Positions 1,604-13,986 of a stretch of DNA of 13,986 nt are shown here, piece after piece. How positions within the stretch are numbered: the first letter of the stretch is position 1; each line of letters starts with the position of its first letter. The translations under genes and the position numbers were made by a program. The DNA comes from a virus: the UHGV virus genome UHGV-0373582. The stretch is one strand, 5' to 3'. The notes beneath the pieces are model-generated. The model did not search any database, had not been told where the DNA came from, and saw nothing but the letters and a program-made list of their open reading frames with translations.

Positions 1604-1630
1604 ATTCCCGAAACCAAACGAGGATAAGTG

Positions 1631-3448
1631 ATGATTAAGAATGAAATTAAAATTCTGAGCGATATTGAACATATCAAAAAGCGTAGCGGCATGTACATTG
1701 GCTCTTCCGCTAATGAAATGCATGAGCGCTTTCTGTTTGGTAAATGGGAAAGTGTTCAGTATGTACCTGGTCTTGTTAAGCTTATTGATGAAATTATCGA
1801 TAACTCGGTAGATGAAGGTATTCGTACTAAGTTTAAATTCGCGAATAAAATTAATGTTACTATCAAAAACAATCAAGTAACAGTTGAAGATAATGGTCGT
1901 GGTATTCCACAAGCGATGGTTAAAACACCTACTGGTGAAGAAATTCCTGGTCCTGTTGCCGCTTGGACTATTCCAAAAGCAGGTGGTAACTTTGGTGATG
2001 ACAAAGAACGCGTCACTGGTGGTATGAACGGTGTTGGTTCTAGTTTAACTAACATTTTTTCTGTGATGTTTGTCGGTGAAACTGGCGACGGTCAAAATAA
2101 TATTGTAGTTCGTTGTTCAAATGGCATGGAAAATAAATCATGGGAAGATATTCCTGGAAAATGGAAAGGAACACGTGTTACTTTCATTCCTGATTTTATG
2201 TCATTTGAAACTAATGAGCTATCTCAGGTTTATCTTGACATTACACTGGATCGTCTCCAGACACTTGCAGTAGTTTATCCTGATATTCAATTTACCTTTA
2301 ATGGTAAAAAGGTTCAGGGCAATTTTAAGAAATACGCACGCCAATATGATGAGCACGCTATCGTTCAAGAACAAGAAAATTGTTCTATTGCGGTTGGTCG
2401 TTCACCGGATGGTTTTCGTCAATTAACATACGTCAATAACATTCATACTAAGAATGGTGGCCATCACATTGACTGCGTTATGGATGATATTTGTGAAGAC
2501 CTTATTCCACAAATCAAACGTAAGTTCAAAATTGATGTAACTAAAGCACGTGTTAAAGAATGTTTGACTATCGTTATGTTTGTTCGTGATATGAAAAACA
2601 TGCGATTTGATTCTCAGACTAAAGAGCGTTTGACTTCTCCATTTGGTGAAATTCGTAGTCATATTCAGCTTGATGCTAAAAAGATTTCACGTGCTATTTT
2701 AAATAATGAAGCAATTTTAATGCCAATTATTGAAGCTGCCTTGGCTCGTAAATTGGCAGCAGAAAAAGCAGCAGAAACTAAAGCAGCTAAAAAGGCTTCT
2801 AAAGCTAAGGTTCATAAACATATTAAAGCGAATCTTTGTGGTAAAGATGCTGACACTACTCTTTTCTTGACTGAGGGTGATTCGGCTATCGGATATCTTA
2901 TTGATGTTCGTGATAAAGAACTTCATGGTGGTTATCCATTGCGCGGTAAAGTTCTCAACAGTTGGGGCATGTCATATGCTGATATGCTTAAAAACAAAGA
3001 ACTGTTTGATATTTGCGCAATCACTGGATTAGTTCTTGGTGAAAAAGCCGAAAACTTGAATTATCATAATATTGCAATTATGACCGATGCCGACCATGAT
3101 GGTCTAGGAAGCATTTATCCTTCTCTGCTCGGATTTTTTAGTAATTGGCCAGAACTGTTTGAACAAGGAAGAATTCGTTTTGTCAAAACTCCTGTAATCA
3201 TCGCTCAGGTCGGTAAAAAACAAGAATGGTTTTATACAGTCGCTGAATATGAGAGTGCCAAAGATGCTCTACCTAAACATAGCATCCGTTATATTAAGGG
3301 ACTTGGCTCTTTAGAAAAATCTGAATATCGTGAGATGATTCAAAACCCAGTATATGATGTTGTTAAACTTCCTGAGAACTGGAAAGAGCTTTTTGAAATG
3401 CTCATGGGAGATAATGCTGACCTTCGTAAAGAATGGATGAGCCAATAG
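1631..3448 (+). CDS. 39: DNA topoisomerase II large subunit, GyrB-like, fused gp39+gp60 form (605 aa)
   Basis: GAGGA RBS 6 nt upstream of ATG 1631. Translation carries GHKL ATPase motifs (EDNGRGIP, GGMNGVGSS) and TOPRIM motifs (LTEGDSA, MTDADHDG). One continuous ORF spans both the ATPase and the TOPRIM/C-terminal part that T4 encodes separately as gene 60. Confidence 0.9.
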   Translation: MIKNEIKILSDIEHIKKRSGMYIGSSANEMHERFLFGKWESVQYVPGLVKLIDEIIDNSVDEGIRTKFKFANKINVTIKNNQVTVEDNGRGIPQAMVKTPTGEEIPGPVAAWTIPKAGGNFGDDKERVTGGMNGVGSSLTNIFSVMFVGETGDGQNNIVVRCSNGMENKSWEDIPGKWKGTRVTFIPDFMSFETNELSQVYLDITLDRLQTLAVVYPDIQFTFNGKKVQGNFKKYARQYDEHAIVQEQENCSIAVGRSPDGFRQLTYVNNIHTKNGGHHIDCVMDDICEDLIPQIKRKFKIDVTKARVKECLTIVMFVRDMKNMRFDSQTKERLTSPFGEIRSHIQLDAKKISRAILNNEAILMPIIEAALARKLAAEKAAETKAAKKASKAKVHKHIKANLCGKDADTTLFLTEGDSAIGYLIDVRDKELHGGYPLRGKVLNSWGMSYADMLKNKELFDICAITGLVLGEKAENLNYHNIAIMTDADHDGLGSIYPSLLGFFSNWPELFEQGRIRFVKTPVIIAQVGKKQEWFYTVAEYESAKDALPKHSIRYIKGLGSLEKSEYREMIQNPVYDVVKLPENWKELFEMLMGDNADLRKEWMSQ

Positions 3449-3477
3449 TTTACTTTACCACAAGGATGTGGTATAAT
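3448..3477 (+). promoter_or_regulatory. T-even early promoter (GTTTAC -35 region, extended -10 TGgTATAAT)
   Basis: GTTTAC at 3448-3453 (overlapping the gene 39 stop), about 17 nt spacer, TGgTATAAT ending at 3477; 25 nt upstream of the rIIA.1 ATG. Same architecture as four other copies in the window. Confidence 0.65.
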
Positions 3478-3502
3478 TAATTGGGCAAATGAGGATATTG
3501 AA

Positions 3503-3706
3503 ATGAAATCATACAGAGTAAATTTAGAACTTTTTGATAAAGCAGTTCATCGAGAATATAGAATCATTCAACGCTTTTTCGATATGGGAGAAGCCGAAGA
3601 GTTTAAAAACCGCTTTAAGGATATTAGAGATAAAATTCAATCCGACACCGCAACTAAAGATGAACTACTAGAAGTTGCTGAAGTTATTAAACGCAATATG
3701 AATTAA
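3503..3706 (+). CDS. rIIA.1: small early protein (67 aa) at the rIIA.1 position
   Basis: GAGGA RBS upstream; sits between gene 39 and rIIA as rIIA.1 does in T4. Assignment is positional, not by recognised sequence. Confidence 0.5.
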
Positions 3707-3716
3707 TGAGGAAATT

Positions 3717-5894
3717 ATGATTATCACCACTGAAAAAGAAACAATTCTTGGTAATGGTTCTAAATCAAAAGCATTTAGCATCACAGCATCTCCTAAAGTA
3801 TTTAAAATTCTGTCATCTGATTTGTATACAAACAAGATTCGCGCAGTAGTCCGTGAATTGATTACCAACATGATTGATGCCCATGCTCTCAATGGAAATC
3901 CTGAAAAATTTATCATTCAAGTTCCAGGACGATTAGATCCGCGATTTGTTTGCCGAGATTTTGGTCCGGGTATGAGCGATTTTGATATTCAAGGTGATGA
4001 TAATTCTCCTGGGTTGTATAATTCATACTTTAGTTCATCTAAGGCTGAATCTAACGATTTCATTGGTGGATTTGGTTTAGGTTCTAAATCTCCGTTTAGT
4101 TATACTGATACATTTAGTATTACTTCATATCATAAAGGCGAAATTCGTGGTTATGTAGCTTACATGGATGGCGATGGTCCACAAATTAAACCTACATTTG
4201 TAAAAGAAATGGGTCCAGATGATAAAACTGGTATTGAAATCGTAGTTCCAGTTGAAGAAAAAGACTTTAGAAACTTTGCTTATGAAGTTTCTTATATCAT
4301 GCGACCATTCAAAGATTTAGCTATCATTAATGGTCTTGACCGCGAAATTGATTATTTTCCGGATTTTGATGACTATTACGGCGTAAATCCAGAAAGATAC
4401 TGGCCAGATCGTGGTGGATTGTATGCTATCTATGGTGGTATTGTTTATCCTATCGATGGTGTTATTAGAGACCGTAACTGGTTAAGCATCCGCAATGAAG
4501 TGAATTACATTAAGTTTCCAATGGGTTCACTTGATATTGCTCCATCACGCGAAGCTCTTTCACTAGATGATCGTACCCGTAAAAATATTATTGAGCGTGT
4601 TAAAGAGCTTAGTGAGAAGGCATTCAATGAAGATGTAAAACGATTTAAAGAATCTACATCTCCTCGTCATACATACCGTGAATTGATGAAGATGGGATAT
4701 TCTGCTCGAGATTATATGATTAGTAATTCAGTCAAATTTACGACTAAAAATCTGTCATATAAGAAGATGCAAAGCATGTTTGAACCTGACAGTAAGTTAT
4801 GCAATGCAGGAGTTGTGTATGAAGTAAATCTTGACCCTCGACTGAAACGCATTAAGCAAAGTCATGAAACTTCAGCCGTTGCATCAAGTTATCGTCTGTT
4901 TGGTATTGATACAACAAAAATTAATATTGTTATTGATAATATTAAAAATCGTGTTAATATTGTCCGTGGATTAGCGCATGCGTTAGATGATAAAGAATTT
5001 AACAACACTTTGAATATTCATCATAATGAGCGTCTTCTGTTTATTAATCCGGAAGTAGAATCGCAGATTGATTTACTTCCTGATATTATGGCAATGTTTG
5101 AAAGTGATGAAGTTAACATTCATTATTTGTCAGAAATTGAAGCTTTAGTTAAAAGCTATATTCCAAAGGTAGTTAAAAGTAAAGCTCCTCGTCCTAAAGC
5201 TGCTACAGCATTTAAGTTTGAAATTAAAGACGGGCGCTGGGAAAAAGAGGAATTATTTACGCTCACATCAGAAGCAGATGAAATTACTGGGTATGTAGCG
5301 TATATGCATCGTTCTGATATTTTCTCTATGGATGGTACTACATCGCTTTGTCATCCATCTACGAGTATTTTGACTCGTATGGCTAATCTTATTGGCATTA
5401 ATGAATTTTATGTTATTCGTCCGCTTTTGCAGAAAAAGGTAAAAGAACTTGGTCAGTGCCAATGTATTTTTGAAACTCTGCGTGATTTATATGTAGATGC
5501 TTTTGATGCTGTAGATTATGATAAGTATGTAGGTTATTCAAGTTCAGCTAAACGATATATTGATAAAATTATCAAGTATCCTGAGTTAGATTTTATGATG
5601 AAGTACTTCAGTGTAGATGAAGTTTCTGAAGAATATACTCGCCTTGGTAATATGGTTAGTTCATTGCAGGGTATATATTTCAACGGTGGAAAAGGTACCA
5701 TCGGCCATGACATCTGGACAGTAACTAATCTTTTTGATGTATTGTCAAATAATGCTTCAAAAAATAGTGATAAAATGGTTGCTGAGTTTACCAAGAAATT
5801 CCGTATTGTTTCCGACTTCATCGGTTATCGCAACTCTTTAAGTGATGATGAAGTTTCCCAAATCGCTAAAACTATGAAGGCCCTTGCGGCCTAA
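3717..5894 (+). CDS. rIIA: rIIA protein (725 aa), GHKL-type ATPase-like N-terminal domain
   Basis: GAGGA RBS (taatgaggaaattATG). Length matches T4 rIIA. N-terminus has GHKL-like boxes ([27 protein letters not shown]). Immediately followed by rIIB. Confidence 0.88.
5498..5522 (+). promoter_or_regulatory. candidate MotA-box middle promoter inside the 3' end of rIIA (could serve rIIB)
   Basis: TGCTTTT at 5498-5504, 12-nt spacer, TATGAT at 5517-5522, about 385 nt upstream of the rIIB ATG. Could be a chance match within coding sequence. Confidence 0.25.
5878..5892 (+). other. short GC hairpin at the rIIA stop (AGGCC-cttgc-GGCCT)
   Basis: Inverted repeat AGGCC / GGCCT with a 5-nt loop, overlapping the last rIIA codons and followed by the AAGGA RBS of rIIB. 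Confidence 0.35.
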
Positions 5895-5905
5895 TAAGGA
5901 AAATT

Positions 5906-6844
5906 ATGTACAATATTAAATGCCTGACCAAAAACGAACAAGCTGAAATTGTCAAACTGTATTCAAGTGGTAATTACACCCAACAGGAATTGGCTGATTG
6001 GCAAGGTGTATCGGTTGACACAATCCGTCGTGTTTTGAAAAATGCTGAAGAAGCTAAACGTCCTAAAGTTACTATTAGCGGTGACATTACGGTTAAAGTT
6101 AATAGCGATATAGCTATTGCTCCAGTTGCTAAATCTGACATTATTTGGAATGCATCTAAAAAATTCATTTCAATTACTGTTGACGGTGTAACTTATAACG
6201 CAACTCCTAATACTCATTCAAACTTCCAGGAAATTCTTAATCTGCTTGTTACAGATAAATTGGAAGAAGCGGCGCAAAAAATTAACGTTCGTCGCGCTGT
6301 TGAAAAATATATTTCCGGTGATGTTCGAATTGAAGGTGGAAGCTTGTTCTATCAAAATATTGAATTGCGGTCTGGTTTAGTTGATCGTATTCTCGATTCG
6401 ATGGAAAAAGGCGAAAACTTTGAATTTTATTTTCCGTTCTTGGAAAATCTGTTGGAAAACCCAAGCCAAAAAGCGGTATCTCGACTCTTTGATTTCTTGG
6501 TAGCAAACGATATTGAAATCACAGAAGATGGTTACTTCTATGCTTGGAAAGTAGTTCGCAGTAATTACTTTGATTGTCATTCAAATACTTTTGATAACAG
6601 TCCTGGTAAAGTAGTTAAAATGCCACGTACTCGTGTGAATGACGATGATACACAAACTTGTTCTCGTGGTCTGCATGTGTGTTCTAAATCTTATATTCGT
6701 CACTTTGGCAGTTCAACCAGCCGAGTTGTAAAAGTTAAAGTACATCCTCGCGATGTAGTATCAATTCCGATTGATTACAATGATGCTAAAATGCGTACCT
6801 GCCAATACGAAGTAGTTGAAGACGTTACTGAACAATTTAAATAA
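5906..6844 (+). CDS. rIIB: rIIB protein (312 aa)
   Basis: AAGGA RBS; length matches T4 rIIB; directly downstream of rIIA in the canonical rII arrangement; N-terminal HTH-like stretch QELADWQGVSVDTIRRVL. Confidence 0.85.
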   Translation: MYNIKCLTKNEQAEIVKLYSSGNYTQQELADWQGVSVDTIRRVLKNAEEAKRPKVTISGDITVKVNSDIAIAPVAKSDIIWNASKKFISITVDGVTYNATPNTHSNFQEILNLLVTDKLEEAAQKINVRRAVEKYISGDVRIEGGSLFYQNIELRSGLVDRILDSMEKGENFEFYFPFLENLLENPSQKAVSRLFDFLVANDIEITEDGYFYAWKVVRSNYFDCHSNTFDNSPGKVVKMPRTRVNDDDTQTCSRGLHVCSKSYIRHFGSSTSRVVKVKVHPRDVVSIPIDYNDAKMRTCQYEVVEDVTEQFK

Positions 6845-10274: not shown

Positions 10275-11603
10275 ATGCAACTGAATAATCGTGATTTAAA
10301 AAGTATCATTGATAATGAAGCATTGGCTTATGCTATGTACACGGTTGAAAATCGTGCCATTCCAAATATGATTGACGGATTTAAGCCAGTTCAACGATTT
10401 GTTATTGCTCGAGCTCTTGATTTGGCACGAGGAAATAAAGATAAGTTTCACAAACTCGCTTCTATCGCAGGCGGTGTAGCGGACCTTGGATATCATCATG
10501 GTGAAAACTCTGCGCAAGACGCAGGTGCTTTGATGGCTAACACTTGGAATAATAACTTTCCTCTGTTAGACGGTCAAGGAAACTTTGGTTCTCGTACTGT
10601 CCAAAAGGCAGCAGCAAGTCGTTATATTTTTGCTCGTGTAAGTAAAAATTTCTATAACGTATATAAAGATACTGAATATGCTCCAGTACATCAAGATAAA
10701 GAACACATTCCGCCTGCTTTCTATTTGCCTATTATTCCTACTGTTCTTCTTAATGGCGTTTCCGGTATTGCAACTGGTTATGCAACTTACATTCTTCCTC
10801 ATAGTGTTTCTTCTGTCAAGAAAGCTGTACTGCAAGCTCTTCAAGGAAAGAAAGTAACTAAACCGAAGGTAGAATTCCCAGAATTTCGTGGTGAAGTCGT
10901 TGAAATTGATGGGCAATATGAAATTCGTGGAACATATAAGTTTACTTCACGAACTCAAATGCATATCACTGAGATTCCATATAAGTATGATCGTGAAACT
11001 TATGTGAGTAAAATCTTAGACCCGCTTGAAGATAAAGGCTTCATTACATGGGATGATGCTTGTGGTGAGCATGGCTTTGGCTTCAAAGTTAAATTCCGAA
11101 AAGAATACTCTTTGAGCGATAATGAAGAAGAACGCCATGCAAAAATTATGAAAGACTTCGGGTTGATTGAGCGTCGTTCCCAGAATATTACCGTCATTAA
11201 TGAGAAAGGAAAGCTGCAAGTTTACGATAATGTAGTTGATTTAATCAAAGACTTCGTTGAAGTTCGTAAAACTTATGTCCAAAAACGAATTGATAACAAA
11301 ATCAAAGAAACTGAATCAGCATTTCGTTTAGCTTTTGCCAAGGCACATTTCATTAAGAAAGTAATTTCAGGTGAAATTGTTGTACAAGGTAAAACTCGCA
11401 AAGAACTGACCGAAGAACTTTCTAAAATTGATATGTATTCTTCTTATGTTGATAAACTAGTTGGAATGAACATTTTTCATATGACTTCCGACGAAGCAAA
11501 GAAACTTGCTGAAGAAGCTAAAGCTAAAAAAGAAGAAAACGAATATTGGAAAACTACTGATGTAGTTACAGAATACACCAAAGATTTAGAGGAAATCAAA
11601 TGA
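10275..11603 (+). CDS. 52: DNA topoisomerase II medium subunit, GyrA-like breakage-reunion subunit (442 aa)
   Basis: Translation contains the type IIA topoisomerase A-subunit hallmarks GYHHGENSAQDA and DGQGNFGS, plus an RY motif (AAASRYIFARV) at the expected catalytic-tyrosine position. Length matches T4 gp52. Confidence 0.88.
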   Translation: MQLNNRDLKSIIDNEALAYAMYTVENRAIPNMIDGFKPVQRFVIARALDLARGNKDKFHKLASIAGGVADLGYHHGENSAQDAGALMANTWNNNFPLLDGQGNFGSRTVQKAAASRYIFARVSKNFYNVYKDTEYAPVHQDKEHIPPAFYLPIIPTVLLNGVSGIATGYATYILPHSVSSVKKAVLQALQGKKVTKPKVEFPEFRGEVVEIDGQYEIRGTYKFTSRTQMHITEIPYKYDRETYVSKILDPLEDKGFITWDDACGEHGFGFKVKFRKEYSLSDNEEERHAKIMKDFGLIERRSQNITVINEKGKLQVYDNVVDLIKDFVEVRKTYVQKRIDNKIKETESAFRLAFAKAHFIKKVISGEIVVQGKTRKELTEELSKIDMYSSYVDKLVGMNIFHMTSDEAKKLAEEAKAKKEENEYWKTTDVVTEYTKDLEEIK

Positions 11604-11749
11604 GTCCATTCATAGGTATTACAAGCGCTGCATTAGTATCTGGTGGCATTTTACTGGCGGGTTTAGGTGTTGTTCCTGCCGTAGCAGGAGGTCTTCTTGC
11701 GTTCGGAATTCAACGTGTTATCATGACAGTTATCACAGTCATGCAGTAA
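11600..11749 (+). CDS. small membrane protein with glycine-zipper motif (49 aa)
   Basis: ATGA overlap with the gene 52 stop; translation MSPFIGITSAALVSGGILLAGLGVVPAVAGGLLAFGIQRVIMTVITVMQ; followed by a strong terminator. Confidence 0.4.
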   Translation: MSPFIGITSAALVSGGILLAGLGVVPAVAGGLLAFGIQRVIMTVITVMQ

Positions 11750-11754
11750 TTTTA

Positions 11755-11784
11755 GGGAGAGCCGAGGCTCTCCCTTTTTTATTT
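11755..11784 (+). terminator. rho-independent terminator (GGGAGAGCC-ga-GGCTCTCCC plus T6)
   Basis: Perfect 9-bp GC-rich stem with 2-nt loop followed by TTTTTTATTT; 5 nt after the stop of the small membrane ORF. Confidence 0.8.
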
Positions 11785-11804
11785 CAAAATTTTTTCACAA
11801 AACG

Positions 11805-11834
11805 GTTTACAAGCATAAAGCTTTATGGTACTAT
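11805..11834 (+). promoter_or_regulatory. T-even early promoter (GTTTAC ... TGgTACTAT)
   Basis: GTTTAC at 11805-11810, 17-nt spacer, TGgTACTAT ending at 11834, then the conserved leader CTATCAAATAAATGAACTGAAAC. Confidence 0.65.
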
Positions 11835-11882
11835 ACAACTATCAAATAAATGAACTGAAACAAACAACCCGGAGATACAAAA

Positions 11883-12110
11883 ATGAAATTTAAAATCGAA
11901 AACGAAATCGTTAAAGCTAAAAATGCTCTGACTGCTAACAAACTGGTTGTAGATGGTATTGAATATGATATCTGTGGAGTTCGTGAAGAAAAACCTGGTG
12001 TTCTGACTTTCTTCACAATGATTTTTAAATTTAAAGGTGACACAGAATTCAAACAGTTTGATTTTGCCCATGAAGACGAAATCGAAGTTCGTAATCTGAA
12101 CATTAAGTAA
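11883..12110 (+). CDS. hypothetical protein (75 aa)
   Basis: GGAG RBS (cccggagatacaaaaATG) downstream of an early promoter. Confidence 0.45.
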   Translation: MKFKIENEIVKAKNALTANKLVVDGIEYDICGVREEKPGVLTFFTMIFKFKGDTEFKQFDFAHEDEIEVRNLNIK

Positions 12111-12149
12111 GTACTTTATTAGAGCTCTTGAAAAAGAGTGCAAAAAAGT

Positions 12150-12178
12150 GTTTACTTCTGCTTTAAACATGATACTAT
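12150..12178 (+). promoter_or_regulatory. T-even early promoter upstream of motA (GTTTAC ... TGaTACTAT)
   Basis: GTTTAC at 12150-12155, about 16 nt spacer, TGaTACTAT ending at 12178, then the same CTATCAAATAAATGAACTGAAAC leader as the 11805 copy. Confidence 0.6.
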
Positions 12179-12215
12179 AGACCTATCAAATAAATGAACT
12201 GAAACGGAGATTAAA

Positions 12216-12851
12216 ATGTCTAAAGTAACTTACATCATCAAAGCTTCTAACGATGTTCTGAATGAAAAAACTGCTGCGATTTTAATTACCATTGCTAAGA
12301 AAGATTTCATTACAGCCGCAGAAGTTCGTGAGGTGCATCCAGATTTAGGTAATGCAGTAGTTAATAGTAATATTGGGGTATTGATTAAAAAAGGTCTGGT
12401 AGAGAAATCTGGTGATGGATTAATCATTACAGGAGAAGCTCAGGATATTATTTCAAATGCAGCAACTTTATATGCACAGGAAAATGCTCCTGAACTACTG
12501 AAAAAACGAGCAACTCGTAAAGCTCGTGAGATTACTTCCGATATGGAAGAAGATAAAGACCTTATGCTAAAACTTTTAGATGAAAATGGATTTGTTCTTA
12601 AAAAGGTTGAAACTTACCGCAGTAACTATCTTGCTATTTTAGAAAAACGCACTCACGGAATTCGTAATTTTGAAATTAATAACAATGGAAATATGCGAAT
12701 TTTTGGATACAAAATGATGGAACACCATATTCAGAAATTTACTGATATTGGAATGTCATGTAAAATCGCTAAAAACGGCAATGTGTATCTTGACATTAAA
12801 CGCTCGGCAGAAAACATTGAAGCAGTAATCACCGTAGCATCTGAACTGTGA
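12216..12851 (+). CDS. motA: middle-transcription activator MotA (211 aa)
   Basis: GGAG RBS; the 211-aa length matches T4 MotA; the gene sits downstream of gene 52 and has its own early promoter. Confidence 0.8.
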   Translation: MSKVTYIIKASNDVLNEKTAAILITIAKKDFITAAEVREVHPDLGNAVVNSNIGVLIKKGLVEKSGDGLIITGEAQDIISNAATLYAQENAPELLKKRATRKAREITSDMEEDKDLMLKLLDENGFVLKKVETYRSNYLAILEKRTHGIRNFEINNNGNMRIFGYKMMEHHIQKFTDIGMSCKIAKNGNVYLDIKRSAENIEAVITVASEL

Positions 12852-12861
12852 GGAATAAATA

Positions 12862-13191
12862 ATGAACAAGTTAGAAATTGTTAATGAACTTCGTCGTTGT
12901 GCAGAACCCACTCAAGAGGGGTGGGATATCTGGTATCATGGAGCTTATCTTGGAACTATCGTAAAGATTAAAACTGGTAAATACATGATTATTCGTGAAA
13001 GTAAAGATGCTCCAGTAGGTATTCGCAATAATTTTATAGCGGCGATAAGTTCATTTACGGATGCAGCTTACGAAATTTACCTTGCTGATTATAAAGAATT
13101 CCAGGAATCTCAACCAGTTATTCGCTCAATTGGTGTTAACAAAGCTCAACAGAAAACTCTGTGGCAGCGTATTAAAGGATGGTTTAAATGA
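12862..13191 (+). CDS. hypothetical protein (109 aa)
   Basis: GAGG RBS (gtgaggaataaataATG); stop overlaps the next start (ATGA). Sits where T4 carries the motA.1/arn.x small ORFs. Confidence 0.5.
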
Positions 13192-13649
13192 ACCCATTTA
13201 TTAATCGTTTAAAAATGCTGAATGTTCCTTTATCTCGTGAAACTCCAGAAAGTCTTGTTGAAAAATTTAAAGCACATGGTTATAAATGCACAGAAGAAGA
13301 TATTCTGAAAGAAGTTCCTGAAATCTGTTGGCAGACCGCATACTGGGATGAAAACCAAAAGTATCAACGACGAATTGTTTGTGCCGCCAACCGTTTTAAA
13401 TTAAAAGATGGACGAACTCTTGTTATTCCAGGTGCTCGTCATTATTCTAAAGATATGGCAGAAGTTTTAGATGTAGTTAAACCTCAATTAGTTACTCAGC
13501 AAGTTTGTGATGATGACCAAGGGTTTATTGATCAGTATAGCAATTACTGGACACGCGAAGAAGCAATGATTATTGCAACTTACGCCGGACAAGTACGTAT
13601 TGAACGTGGTGGTAGTGAAAAAGAACTTTACTCTGAGGACCTTTACTAA
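13188..13649 (+). CDS. hypothetical protein (153 aa)
   Basis: ATGA overlap with upstream ORF and TAATG overlap with downstream ORF; no recognised motif. Confidence 0.5.
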
Positions 13650-13945
13650 TGAATATTAAAAAGTTTCAAATTGATGGAATTAAGAATCAAATCCAGGCAC
13701 TGGAATATGCTAATAAAATGATGTCAACTAATTGGGGAATTTATGCCAATGAACCGGCATTTCAGTTCTGTGATATGGAATTCACCAAAAAGCTCGTAGG
13801 AAAAGATTATGTATGTCCATTTAGTTCTCCAGTAAATGGAATGCTAAAACCTGCTTTACGCGATCTTTATATTGCGATGAACGAAGAAATGATAAAAGAA
13901 CTAAAACGTCAACTAAAGGTTATTCAATTTGGCCAGGGAAATTAA
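13649..13945 (+). CDS. hypothetical protein (98 aa)
   Basis: TAATG coupling to the upstream ORF; no recognised motif. Confidence 0.5.
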   Translation: MNIKKFQIDGIKNQIQALEYANKMMSTNWGIYANEPAFQFCDMEFTKKLVGKDYVCPFSSPVNGMLKPALRDLYIAMNEEMIKELKRQLKVIQFGQGN

Positions 13946-13986
13946 TTCAAAATCCGATTATTTTAATTCTCTCAATGATAAAGATA

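Follow-up and report, generated by a model that had tools for sequence, protein, structure and literature searches.

The genomic stretch analysed here, 13,986 nucleotides of the virus genome UHGV-0373582 (one strand, 5′ to 3′; hereafter the window), carries four small open reading frames (ORFs) of 75, 109, 153 and 98 amino acids (aa) around the middle-transcription activator gene motA. Comparison with phage T4 found that the three ORFs downstream of motA correspond to arn.4, arn.3 and arn.2, genes long named in T4 (97-98% identity, blastp), and the ORF upstream of motA appears to sit in an inserted cassette of the promoter-early stem-loop (PeSL) type. A sequence-only reading had described all four as unassigned and as candidates for lineage-specific anti-defence or transcription-takeover factors. 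They are indeed uncharacterised accessory genes of the arn neighbourhood, but three of the four are neither unassigned nor lineage-specific. The explanation of the whole that we moderately favour is a T4-type motA-arn unit of a Tequatrovirus, with a PeSL-like 75-aa cassette, encoding dispensable early proteins that would act on the host.

Identification of the ORFs and of the source phage

The four ORFs all start with ATG and are located one upstream and three downstream of motA, as the sequence-only reading had placed them. With the two known genes between which the first of them lies, they are:

11600-11749, + strand, motA.1 orthologue, a 49-aa hydrophobic protein (98% identity to T4 MotA.1; phrog_3487, E 7e-31)
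11883-12110, + strand, 75-aa accessory ORF (phrog_10955, E 1e-48), a single-gene cassette with its own predicted early promoter
12216-12851, + strand, motA, middle-transcription activator (98% identity to T4 MotA; Pfam MotA_activ, E 5e-61, and MotCF, E 3e-67)
12862-13191, + strand, arn.4 orthologue in the full-length 109-aa form (residues 42-109 98.5% identical to T4 Arn.4, blastp)
13188-13649, + strand, arn.3 orthologue, 153 aa (about 40 variable, helical residues at the N-terminus, then a conserved alpha/beta core at about residues 44-153)
13649-13945, + strand, arn.2 orthologue, 98 aa (97% identity to T4 Arn.2, T4p259, NP_049870, blastp; phrog_1844, E 3e-51)

The order, orientation and overlaps of the last three ORFs downstream of motA are the same as those of arn.4, arn.3 and arn.2 in T4, at identities of 98.5%, 98% and 97%. 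The T4 proteins are also assigned to the same PHROG families, 839 and 1844, with 33982 for the C-terminal part of Arn.4 (PMC11879866, supplementary file 8). On identity and gene order, these ORFs are thus orthologues of genes already named, and the finding is mostly ordinary. Their homologues are widespread: Arn.3 was found in 1,587 of 50,697 phage records (tblastn) from at least 20 lineages, Arn.4 in 1,002 phage records and Arn.2 in 948.

Megablast of the stretch 11600-13986 (2.4 kb) against phage records gave 818 matches, of which 469 covered at least 80% of it, with a best identity of 99%. The matching records are nearly all Tequatrovirus phages with E. coli, Shigella or Yersinia as hosts, and by this comparison the source phage is a Tequatrovirus, 97-99% identical to many T4-like phages of E. 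coli. Upstream, the PHROG order is that of T4: topoisomerase II large subunit, rIIA, rIIB, denB, ndd, two small ORFs in the T4 slots of ac and 52.1, and gene 52. By the T4 annotation the four ORFs are thus placed at the junction 52 - motA - arn - asiA. The synteny of phage PBM-1, which is 99% identical, agrees with both the T4 annotation and the gene order of the window. Separately, the topoisomerase II large subunit (1628-3448) was found to be one 606-aa ORF matching both phrog_543 and the gp60-type phrog_7229, so that the split between T4 genes 39 and 60 is apparently missing in this phage.

The sequence-only reading had noted that neither arn nor asiA could be matched in this neighbourhood, and blastp of the window proteins indeed found neither gene within the window. 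In PBM-1, the distance from the arn.2 stop codon is about 290 bp to the start of arn and about 730 bp to that of asiA, both beyond window base 13986, which explains why no match could be made.

Translation signals and selection

Ribosome-binding sites were found ahead of all four ORFs, as had been claimed: GGAG 8 nt upstream of the start of the 75-aa ORF, GAGGA 7 nt upstream of arn.4 and overlapping the motA stop codon, AAGGA about 9 nt upstream of arn.3, and GAGGA 10 nt upstream of arn.2. The accompanying claim of start-stop coupling holds for the arn.4/arn.3 junction (ATGA, a 4-nt overlap) and the arn.3/arn.2 junction (TAATG, a 1-nt overlap that takes in the arn.3 stop codon), but not for the 75-aa ORF, which lies 133 nt past motA.1 and 105 nt ahead of motA. 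A 10-nt gap separates arn.4 from the motA stop codon. The overlaps fit coupled translation of arn.4, arn.3 and arn.2 off a single mRNA.

The ratio of non-synonymous to synonymous substitution rates (dN/dS) against T4 is 0.034 for arn.4, 0.039 for arn.3 and 0.069 for arn.2, with 0.050 for motA. The 75-aa ORF gave 0.26 against its homologue in Citrobacter phage Merlin and 0.14 against that of a Proteus phage. By these measures all four ORFs are genuine genes under purifying selection. Since they are short and contain no known domains, they could in principle be chance open frames in A+T-rich intergenic DNA. This possibility is already refuted, and its probability is close to nil: besides the dN/dS range of 0.03-0.26, homologues number in the hundreds to thousands, the AlphaFold2 (AF2) models of Arn.3 and Arn.4 are confident, and the Arn.2 protein was detected by immunoblot, as a plasmid-expressed, His-tagged construct (10.64898/2026.06.19.733364).

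No family of known function was matched by the four proteins in the collections Pfam, NCBIfam, PADLOC and PHROGs, nor among PDB sequences, which were searched with each sequence singly and with a profile of each family. To this extent the remark that none of the ORFs carries a recognisable motif was correct; nevertheless three are named T4 genes and the fourth is a member of a PHROG family already catalogued as hypothetical proteins. Matches in Pfam, NCBIfam and PADLOC comprised sub-threshold noise only and were discarded (Prok-E2_B, E 0.066; Nif11 leader, E 0.0044; REase_II, E 0.0031; PD-T4-9_B, E 0.0027).

Comparison with Arn and AsiA

T4 Arn, an anti-McrBC DNA mimic, and AsiA, an anti-sigma-70 factor, have their gene neighbourhood and direction of transcription in common with the four ORFs, and in T2 arn is reported to share one transcript with arn.4, arn.3 and arn.2, but neither is similar to the four proteins in sequence, profile or charge. 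Profile comparison by hhalign, both within the set of four families and with Arn, AsiA, Arn.1 and AsiA.1, never reached a probability of 1%, indicating no relationship. Against Arn, the probability was at most 0.65% for all four families and no blastp match was better than E of about 5; against AsiA it was at most 0.56%, with no match by blastp. T4 Arn has an isoelectric point (pI) of 4.55 and a net charge of -9 on 92 aa, whereas none of the four proteins is strongly acidic: for the 75-, 109-, 153- and 98-aa proteins, the pI values are 5.4, 9.2, 5.3 and 8.9 and the net charges -2.4, +3.6, -4.3 and +2.5.

These data bear on the proposal that at least one of the ORFs encodes an Arn-like DNA mimic, blocking restriction enzymes directly. 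Co-transcription with arn in T2 would favour it, as would the label "anti-restriction nuclease" that some database records give to these ORFs. Given the lack of Arn similarity by sequence or profile, the basic character of Arn.4 and Arn.2, and the mild acidity of Arn.3 and the 75-aa protein compared with Arn, we regard a direct mimic as very improbable. The label itself is found in many GenBank and UniRef records of Arn.2, Arn.3 and Arn.4 homologues, and no test of it turned up in the literature search. As the 2026 T2 preprint also calls the functions unknown, the label probably derives from the arn.N gene names.

The 75-aa ORF and its cassette

No counterpart of the 75-aa ORF was found in T4, either by blastp against the T4 proteins of the region or by alignment to T4. 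It occurs in 168 phage records, against about 1,000 for Arn.4 and Arn.2, and 41 of its 75 residues are invariant among seven homologues. Alignment of the motA.1-motA spacer to T4 revealed an insert of about 340 bp (344 nt by repeat spacing), flanked on both sides by copies of an early-type promoter and its leader. The elements found in this spacer are:

11754-11775, + strand, stem-loop terminator after motA.1 and stem-loop half of the PeSL-like element (9-bp G+C-rich stem and T run; -18.5 kcal/mol, z = -4.1; identical in T4)
11805-11834, + strand, T4-early-type promoter by pattern match (GTTTAC, 15-nt spacer, TGGTACTAT), predicted to drive the 75-aa ORF
11825-11861, + strand, left copy of a 37-nt direct repeat (family D1), comprising -10 region and leader, 92% identical to the right copy, 344 nt apart
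12150-12178, + strand, second, diverged early-type promoter by pattern match (GTTTAC, 17-nt spacer, TACTAT), overlapping the right repeat and predicted to drive motA and the later genes
12169-12205, + strand, right copy of the 37-nt direct repeat (family D1)

The pattern GTTTAC-N15-18-TANNNT has five matches on the + strand of the window (at 3448, 7941, 8665, 11805 and 12150), against 0.69 expected by chance. The promoter at 11805-11834 was also found by a sigma-70 scan, has a TG ahead of its -10 hexamer, and corresponds to the single promoter that T4 has upstream of motA.

PeSL-mediated shuffling of accessory genes is described for T4-type phages (Arbiol et al. 2010, PMC2839356; Comeau et al. 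2014, PMC4122927). The insert resembles such cassettes in its layout: a small ORF of unknown function fills an intergenic position whose content varies, with a stem-loop terminator and a strong sigma-70-type early promoter ahead of it and another early promoter behind. As with PeSL cassettes, some close relatives carry the ORF and others do not, and another genus has it at a different locus. The number of ORFs in the motA.1-motA gap is zero in T4, one in the window phage, three in Merlin and one in phage TG1. The homologues of Merlin and of Proteus phage ABTNLPp2 are likewise located between two early-type promoters, the ABTNLPp2 copy being the one at a different locus. The downstream element differs from that of a PeSL, since it consists only of a promoter and a weak hairpin. 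From its layout the insert has the anatomy of a PeSL cassette, and the 75-aa gene may spread as such a promoter-flanked unit via recombination between early promoters.

Opposite the 75-aa gene, an antisense ATG ORF of 115 aa was observed on the - strand (11823-12170). It is probably spurious, because it is the sense frame that has a promoter, a ribosome-binding site and purifying selection.

Predicted transcription of the motA-arn unit

Ahead of the second promoter there is only a weak hairpin (-9.1 kcal/mol) lacking a T run, which makes read-through from the first promoter likely. On the + strand, no terminator-like site was found from 12216 to the window end, and the canonical pattern of a MotA-box middle promoter is absent from 11883-13945. 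With neither present, motA, arn.4, arn.3 and arn.2 are most simply taken as one unit transcribed from early promoters. In T2, arn.4-arn.3-arn.2-arn.1-arn are reported to form one transcript (10.64898/2026.06.19.733364). We suggest that host sigma-70 RNA polymerase would fire the two tandem early promoters immediately after infection, and that the transcript probably runs through motA, arn.4, arn.3 and arn.2 and then through arn.1 and arn, the gene for the McrBC inhibitor, just past the window.

arn.4 and the T4 start codon

The 109-aa protein matches phrog_1594 over residues 1-109 at E 3e-53. Its family (PF26821) comprises 55 homologue clusters, and the listed homologues are 107-119 aa long with one exception, nearly all of them 107-114 aa. 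The invariant residues are M1, E9, L10, C13, W21, D22, W24, G27, Y29, L30 and G31, and the conserved N-terminal block W-D-x-W-x-x-G-x-Y-L-G is present in the window protein. The gene lies directly after motA and overlaps arn.3, the same arrangement as in T4, Merlin and TG1. The AF2 model has a predicted local distance difference test score (pLDDT) of 80 overall and about 88 for residues 1-83, and shows, in order, a helix, an antiparallel sheet and two helices, then a floppy linker that leads to a C-terminal helix of basic amphipathic character. Among known systems, those taken as closest to the genes of this region also include the RWD-type alpha+beta protein-interaction domains (Mcm21/Ctf19, CENP-O, Csm1, the Mad1 C-terminal domain and Knl1).

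In T4, arn.4 (T4p261, NP_049872) has ATA where the window phage has ATG. Because of this replacement it is annotated only from Met42, as a protein of 68 aa instead of 109 aa. The 41 upstream codons (window 12862-12984; T4 locus 3335-3457, - strand) are intact in T4 and encode the best-conserved part of the family. Between T4 and the window they differ by seven synonymous changes, and the start codon is the only non-synonymous one. A 24-mer around the start was found in its ATG version in six IMG/VR contigs and in its ATA version in none. The intact conserved codons, the ATG 24-mers and the homologue lengths together indicate that full-length Arn.4 is the norm, and judging from these comparisons the 68-aa gene of T4 is probably either a private start-codon mutant or initiated at AUA. 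As T4 carries the ATA allele and only the 68-aa annotation was screened, the T4 screens cited below may not report on full-length Arn.4.

arn.2 and the ArcZ-complementary site

Only 11 representative clusters of Arn.2 were found among 1.84 billion proteins. Near its 3′ end the gene contains the following element:

13933-13942, + strand, 10-nt site CCAGGGAAAT at +285 to +294 of arn.2, a perfect complement of AUUUCCCUGG in the host small RNA ArcZ

A match to Rfam RF00081 at an E. coli locus confirmed the ArcZ sequence; the whole window itself matched no Rfam family. In T2, pairing of ArcZ with arn.2 at +285 to +294 shields the mRNA from RNase E (10.64898/2026.06.19.733364), and the position of CCAGGGAAAT in the window is identical to this pairing site. 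The same preprint describes an RNase E site (GcAUU) that ends a 70-nt spacer before arn.1, and an mRNA stability that depends on ArcZ and Hfq (10.64898/2026.06.19.733364); the spacer end and arn.1 are located past window base 13986. The site at the 3′ end of arn.2 may therefore let host ArcZ protect the arn mRNA from RNase E in this phage as well.

Homologues of Arn.4 and Arn.2 adjoin Arn.3 in T4 and in TG1, the latter having no annotated arn, and Merlin has Arn.4-Arn.3-Arn without Arn.2. These arrangements indicate that the arn genes travel together within Tevenvirinae, though not rigidly.

Arn.3, a widespread phage family

The 153-aa protein is 98% identical to T4 Arn.3 (T4p260, NP_049871; blastp), which has 152 residues, one fewer, and matches phrog_839 at E 4e-74. 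The core motifs of the family (PF26092 / phrog_839), including L(Y/F)SEDLY, and all its invariant columns are present in the window protein. The family occurs in about 3% of sequenced phage genomes, its carriers comprising Straboviridae, Ackermannviridae, Phapecoctavirus and several groups of jumbo phages. In bacteria and archaea (185,579 species, one genome each) the core was found at a single locus, on a 139-kb contig of a metagenome-assembled genome, and tblastn of plasmids gave two matches only. By this distribution Arn.3 is a phage-restricted family.

One plasmid locus is an observation in its own right. On the conjugative IncF plasmid LC746220.1, an ORF at 5731-6276 matches the Arn.3 core (hidden Markov model E 7.8e-12), the annotated coding sequence there being only 75 aa, and lies directly upstream of the trimethoprim-resistance gene dfrA18 (6293-6844). 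This hints that the dfrA18 segment may have been captured from a phage.

A model of Arn.3 built from 62 homologues has a mean pLDDT of 89.9 and consists of about 40 N-terminal helical residues followed by a beta-rich alpha/beta core, for which no solved fold was matched. Foldseek against predicted viral structures found relatives in T4-like, Acinetobacter, Serratia, Klebsiella, Pseudomonas, Erwinia, Agrobacterium and Pseudoalteromonas phages. In BFVD it gave weak matches inside three large polyvalent proteins (E 3e-3 to 5e-2; template modelling score, query-normalised, 0.35); among 89 Arn.3 loci no ORF with the domain exceeded about 220 aa. A Pfam scan of the 62 homologues gave no consistent family, the best being Prok-E2_B in eight of the 62 at E 0.035 or worse.

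The invariant residues in the 62-sequence alignment are A66, A67, R84, H85, Q111, G112, F113, D115, Y120, R123 and Q135, and nearly the same set is kept in an alignment of 22 divergent, non-T4 members only (30-50% identical). Tentatively, these polar and aromatic residues, of which about ten persist in phage families with copies of only 30-40% identity, would fit a ligand-binding or catalytic pocket better than the fast-evolving surface of a protein-binding factor, and with similarly low confidence the ligand is probably a nucleotide or another phosphate-bearing molecule. A much bolder proposal, which we consider unlikely though worth stating, is that Arn.3 founds a structurally unprecedented, phage-exclusive family of enzymes or small-molecule binders. 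Its R-H / Q-G-F-x-D / R / Q / S-E pocket would then destroy or sequester a nucleotide-type host molecule, such as a second messenger of immunity or a damaged end of a nucleic acid, and the arn operon would be a multi-gene counter-defence island.

The neighbourhood of Arn.3 was compared across 89 loci of 20 lineages. Gene 52, for the topoisomerase subunit, is located upstream of the Arn.3 gene in both Straboviridae and Ackermannviridae. In Salmonella phage GG32 (1-4282), which represents the order in Ackermannviridae, the topoisomerase II subunits are followed by a small membrane protein, a DUF6527 protein and the Arn.3-like gene, without motA, so that the linkage of gene 52 and arn.3 either predates MotA or is independent of it. 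The ORFs flanking Arn.3 in non-T4 phages are not homologues of Arn.4 or Arn.2, the best match among 19 sequences being gp308 of Serratia phage Yaphecito (E 0.015). A protein resembling the ClpX adaptor SspB was observed just upstream of the Arn.3-like gene in three jumbo-phage loci, and in Yaphecito the two genes overlap:

3396-3881, Serratia phage Yaphecito, SspB-like/Arn.3-like locus
2514-2942, Klebsiella phage LPKP23, SspB-like/Arn.3-like locus
3342-3827, IMG/VR contig, SspB-like/Arn.3-like locus

In Phapecoctavirus, the neighbourhood raises the possibility that Arn.3 is an accessory part of nucleic-acid end-healing or RNA repair, for example against anticodon nucleases. In Escherichia phage ETEC-TG (3464-6226) the order is cREC (cyclic-phosphate processing receiver), a 47-aa ORF, the Arn.3-like gene, a metallophosphoesterase, an RNA ligase of the T4 Rnl1 type and an AAA_33 kinase, and the Arn.3-like gene overlaps the metallophosphoesterase start by 1 nt. 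One structural relative of Arn.3 is annotated as a putative polynucleotide kinase, and the invariant residues include R, H, D and Q, which would be apt for phosphate chemistry. This neighbourhood, however, is found in only one of the 20 lineages (four of the 89 loci), and in T4-like phages the Arn.3 gene is away from pseT and rnlA. A role in repair thus seems quite improbable.

Possible functions of the arn genes

Transposon sequencing of T4 (HIDEN-SEQ) found 21 of 22 TA sites disrupted in arn.2, 33 of 34 in arn.3 and 16 of 16 in arn.4, classing all three as non-essential (10.1101/2025.11.20.689424, supplementary file 7), and scored motA (two of 53 TA sites) and asiA as essential (10.1101/2025.11.20.689424). 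In CRISPRi-ART, arn.2, arn.3 and arn.4 were all "Not Fit" (PMC11879866, supplementary file 15).

This difference bears on the view that the ORFs are transcription-takeover cofactors of MotA and AsiA that might, for instance, modulate sigma appropriation or the host RNA polymerase. The location between motA and asiA speaks for such a role, as does the position of arn.4 directly after motA (0-133 bp in annotations) in T4, Merlin, TG1 and the window phage, with the early promoter of motA probably shared. On the other hand, motA and asiA are essential in T4 while arn.2, arn.3 and arn.4 are fully dispensable, hhalign against AsiA stayed below 1%, and no DNA-binding or sigma-binding family was matched. 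Arn.3 is also found at loci of Ackermannviridae, Phapecoctavirus and jumbo phages without annotated MotA or AsiA, which argues against a MotA-specific role in transcription. We hold takeover cofactors to be a distinctly unlikely explanation.

That the four ORFs encode accessory factors acting on the host or countering its defences, as the sequence-only reading supposed, is plausible. The 2026 ArcZ preprint on T2 was all that our literature search on arn.2, arn.3, arn.4 and their Pfam and PHROG accessions turned up; it calls a counter-defence role "conceivable" and describes arn.1 to arn.4 as genes of unknown function (10.64898/2026.06.19.733364). With low confidence, the four may be early proteins that target host components, dispensable in general and useful under certain conditions, Arn.4, Arn.2 and the 75-aa protein more likely being small binders of host proteins.

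Several points weigh against this explanation of the region. The HIDEN-SEQ text names specific hits in the challenges with RexAB, RnlAB, CBASS and DarTG1 and one hit (tk.4) in that with DarTG2, none of them being arn.2, arn.3 or arn.4 (10.1101/2025.11.20.689424), and these three genes were not depleted in one of its comparison tables (10.1101/2025.11.20.689424). They are thus dispensable in the laboratory host and unneeded against those five systems, with T4 carrying an arn.4 allele without a normal start codon. The proposed pocket of Arn.3 is drawn only from sequence conservation and secondary-structure position. No neighbour gene of Arn.3 recurs across the 89 loci beyond lineage-level synteny, so that genomic context yields no mechanism. 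The promoters and the co-transcription are predicted from consensus patterns and from the literature on T2 and T4, and the MotA-box pattern is missing, as noted above.

Significance

What looked like an open finding closes as an ordinary one: the ORFs downstream of motA are known, named genes of the T4 family, and the expected arn and asiA are just past the window end. Of what is left, Arn.3 is the most interesting part. The motA.1-motA gap offers a clean natural example of a promoter-bracketed cassette insertion, usable for studying how T4-like phages acquire accessory genes, and phages with an ATG-initiated arn.4, such as the window phage, would be better models than T4 for Arn.4. Arn.3 makes a good structural and biochemical target, being widespread and phage-restricted, with a confident model, no solved relative and invariant polar residues. 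Should Arn.3 prove to be the founding member of a family that acts on a host molecule, the "arn operon" of T4 would be a counter-defence island and not a lone anti-McrBC gene with passengers.

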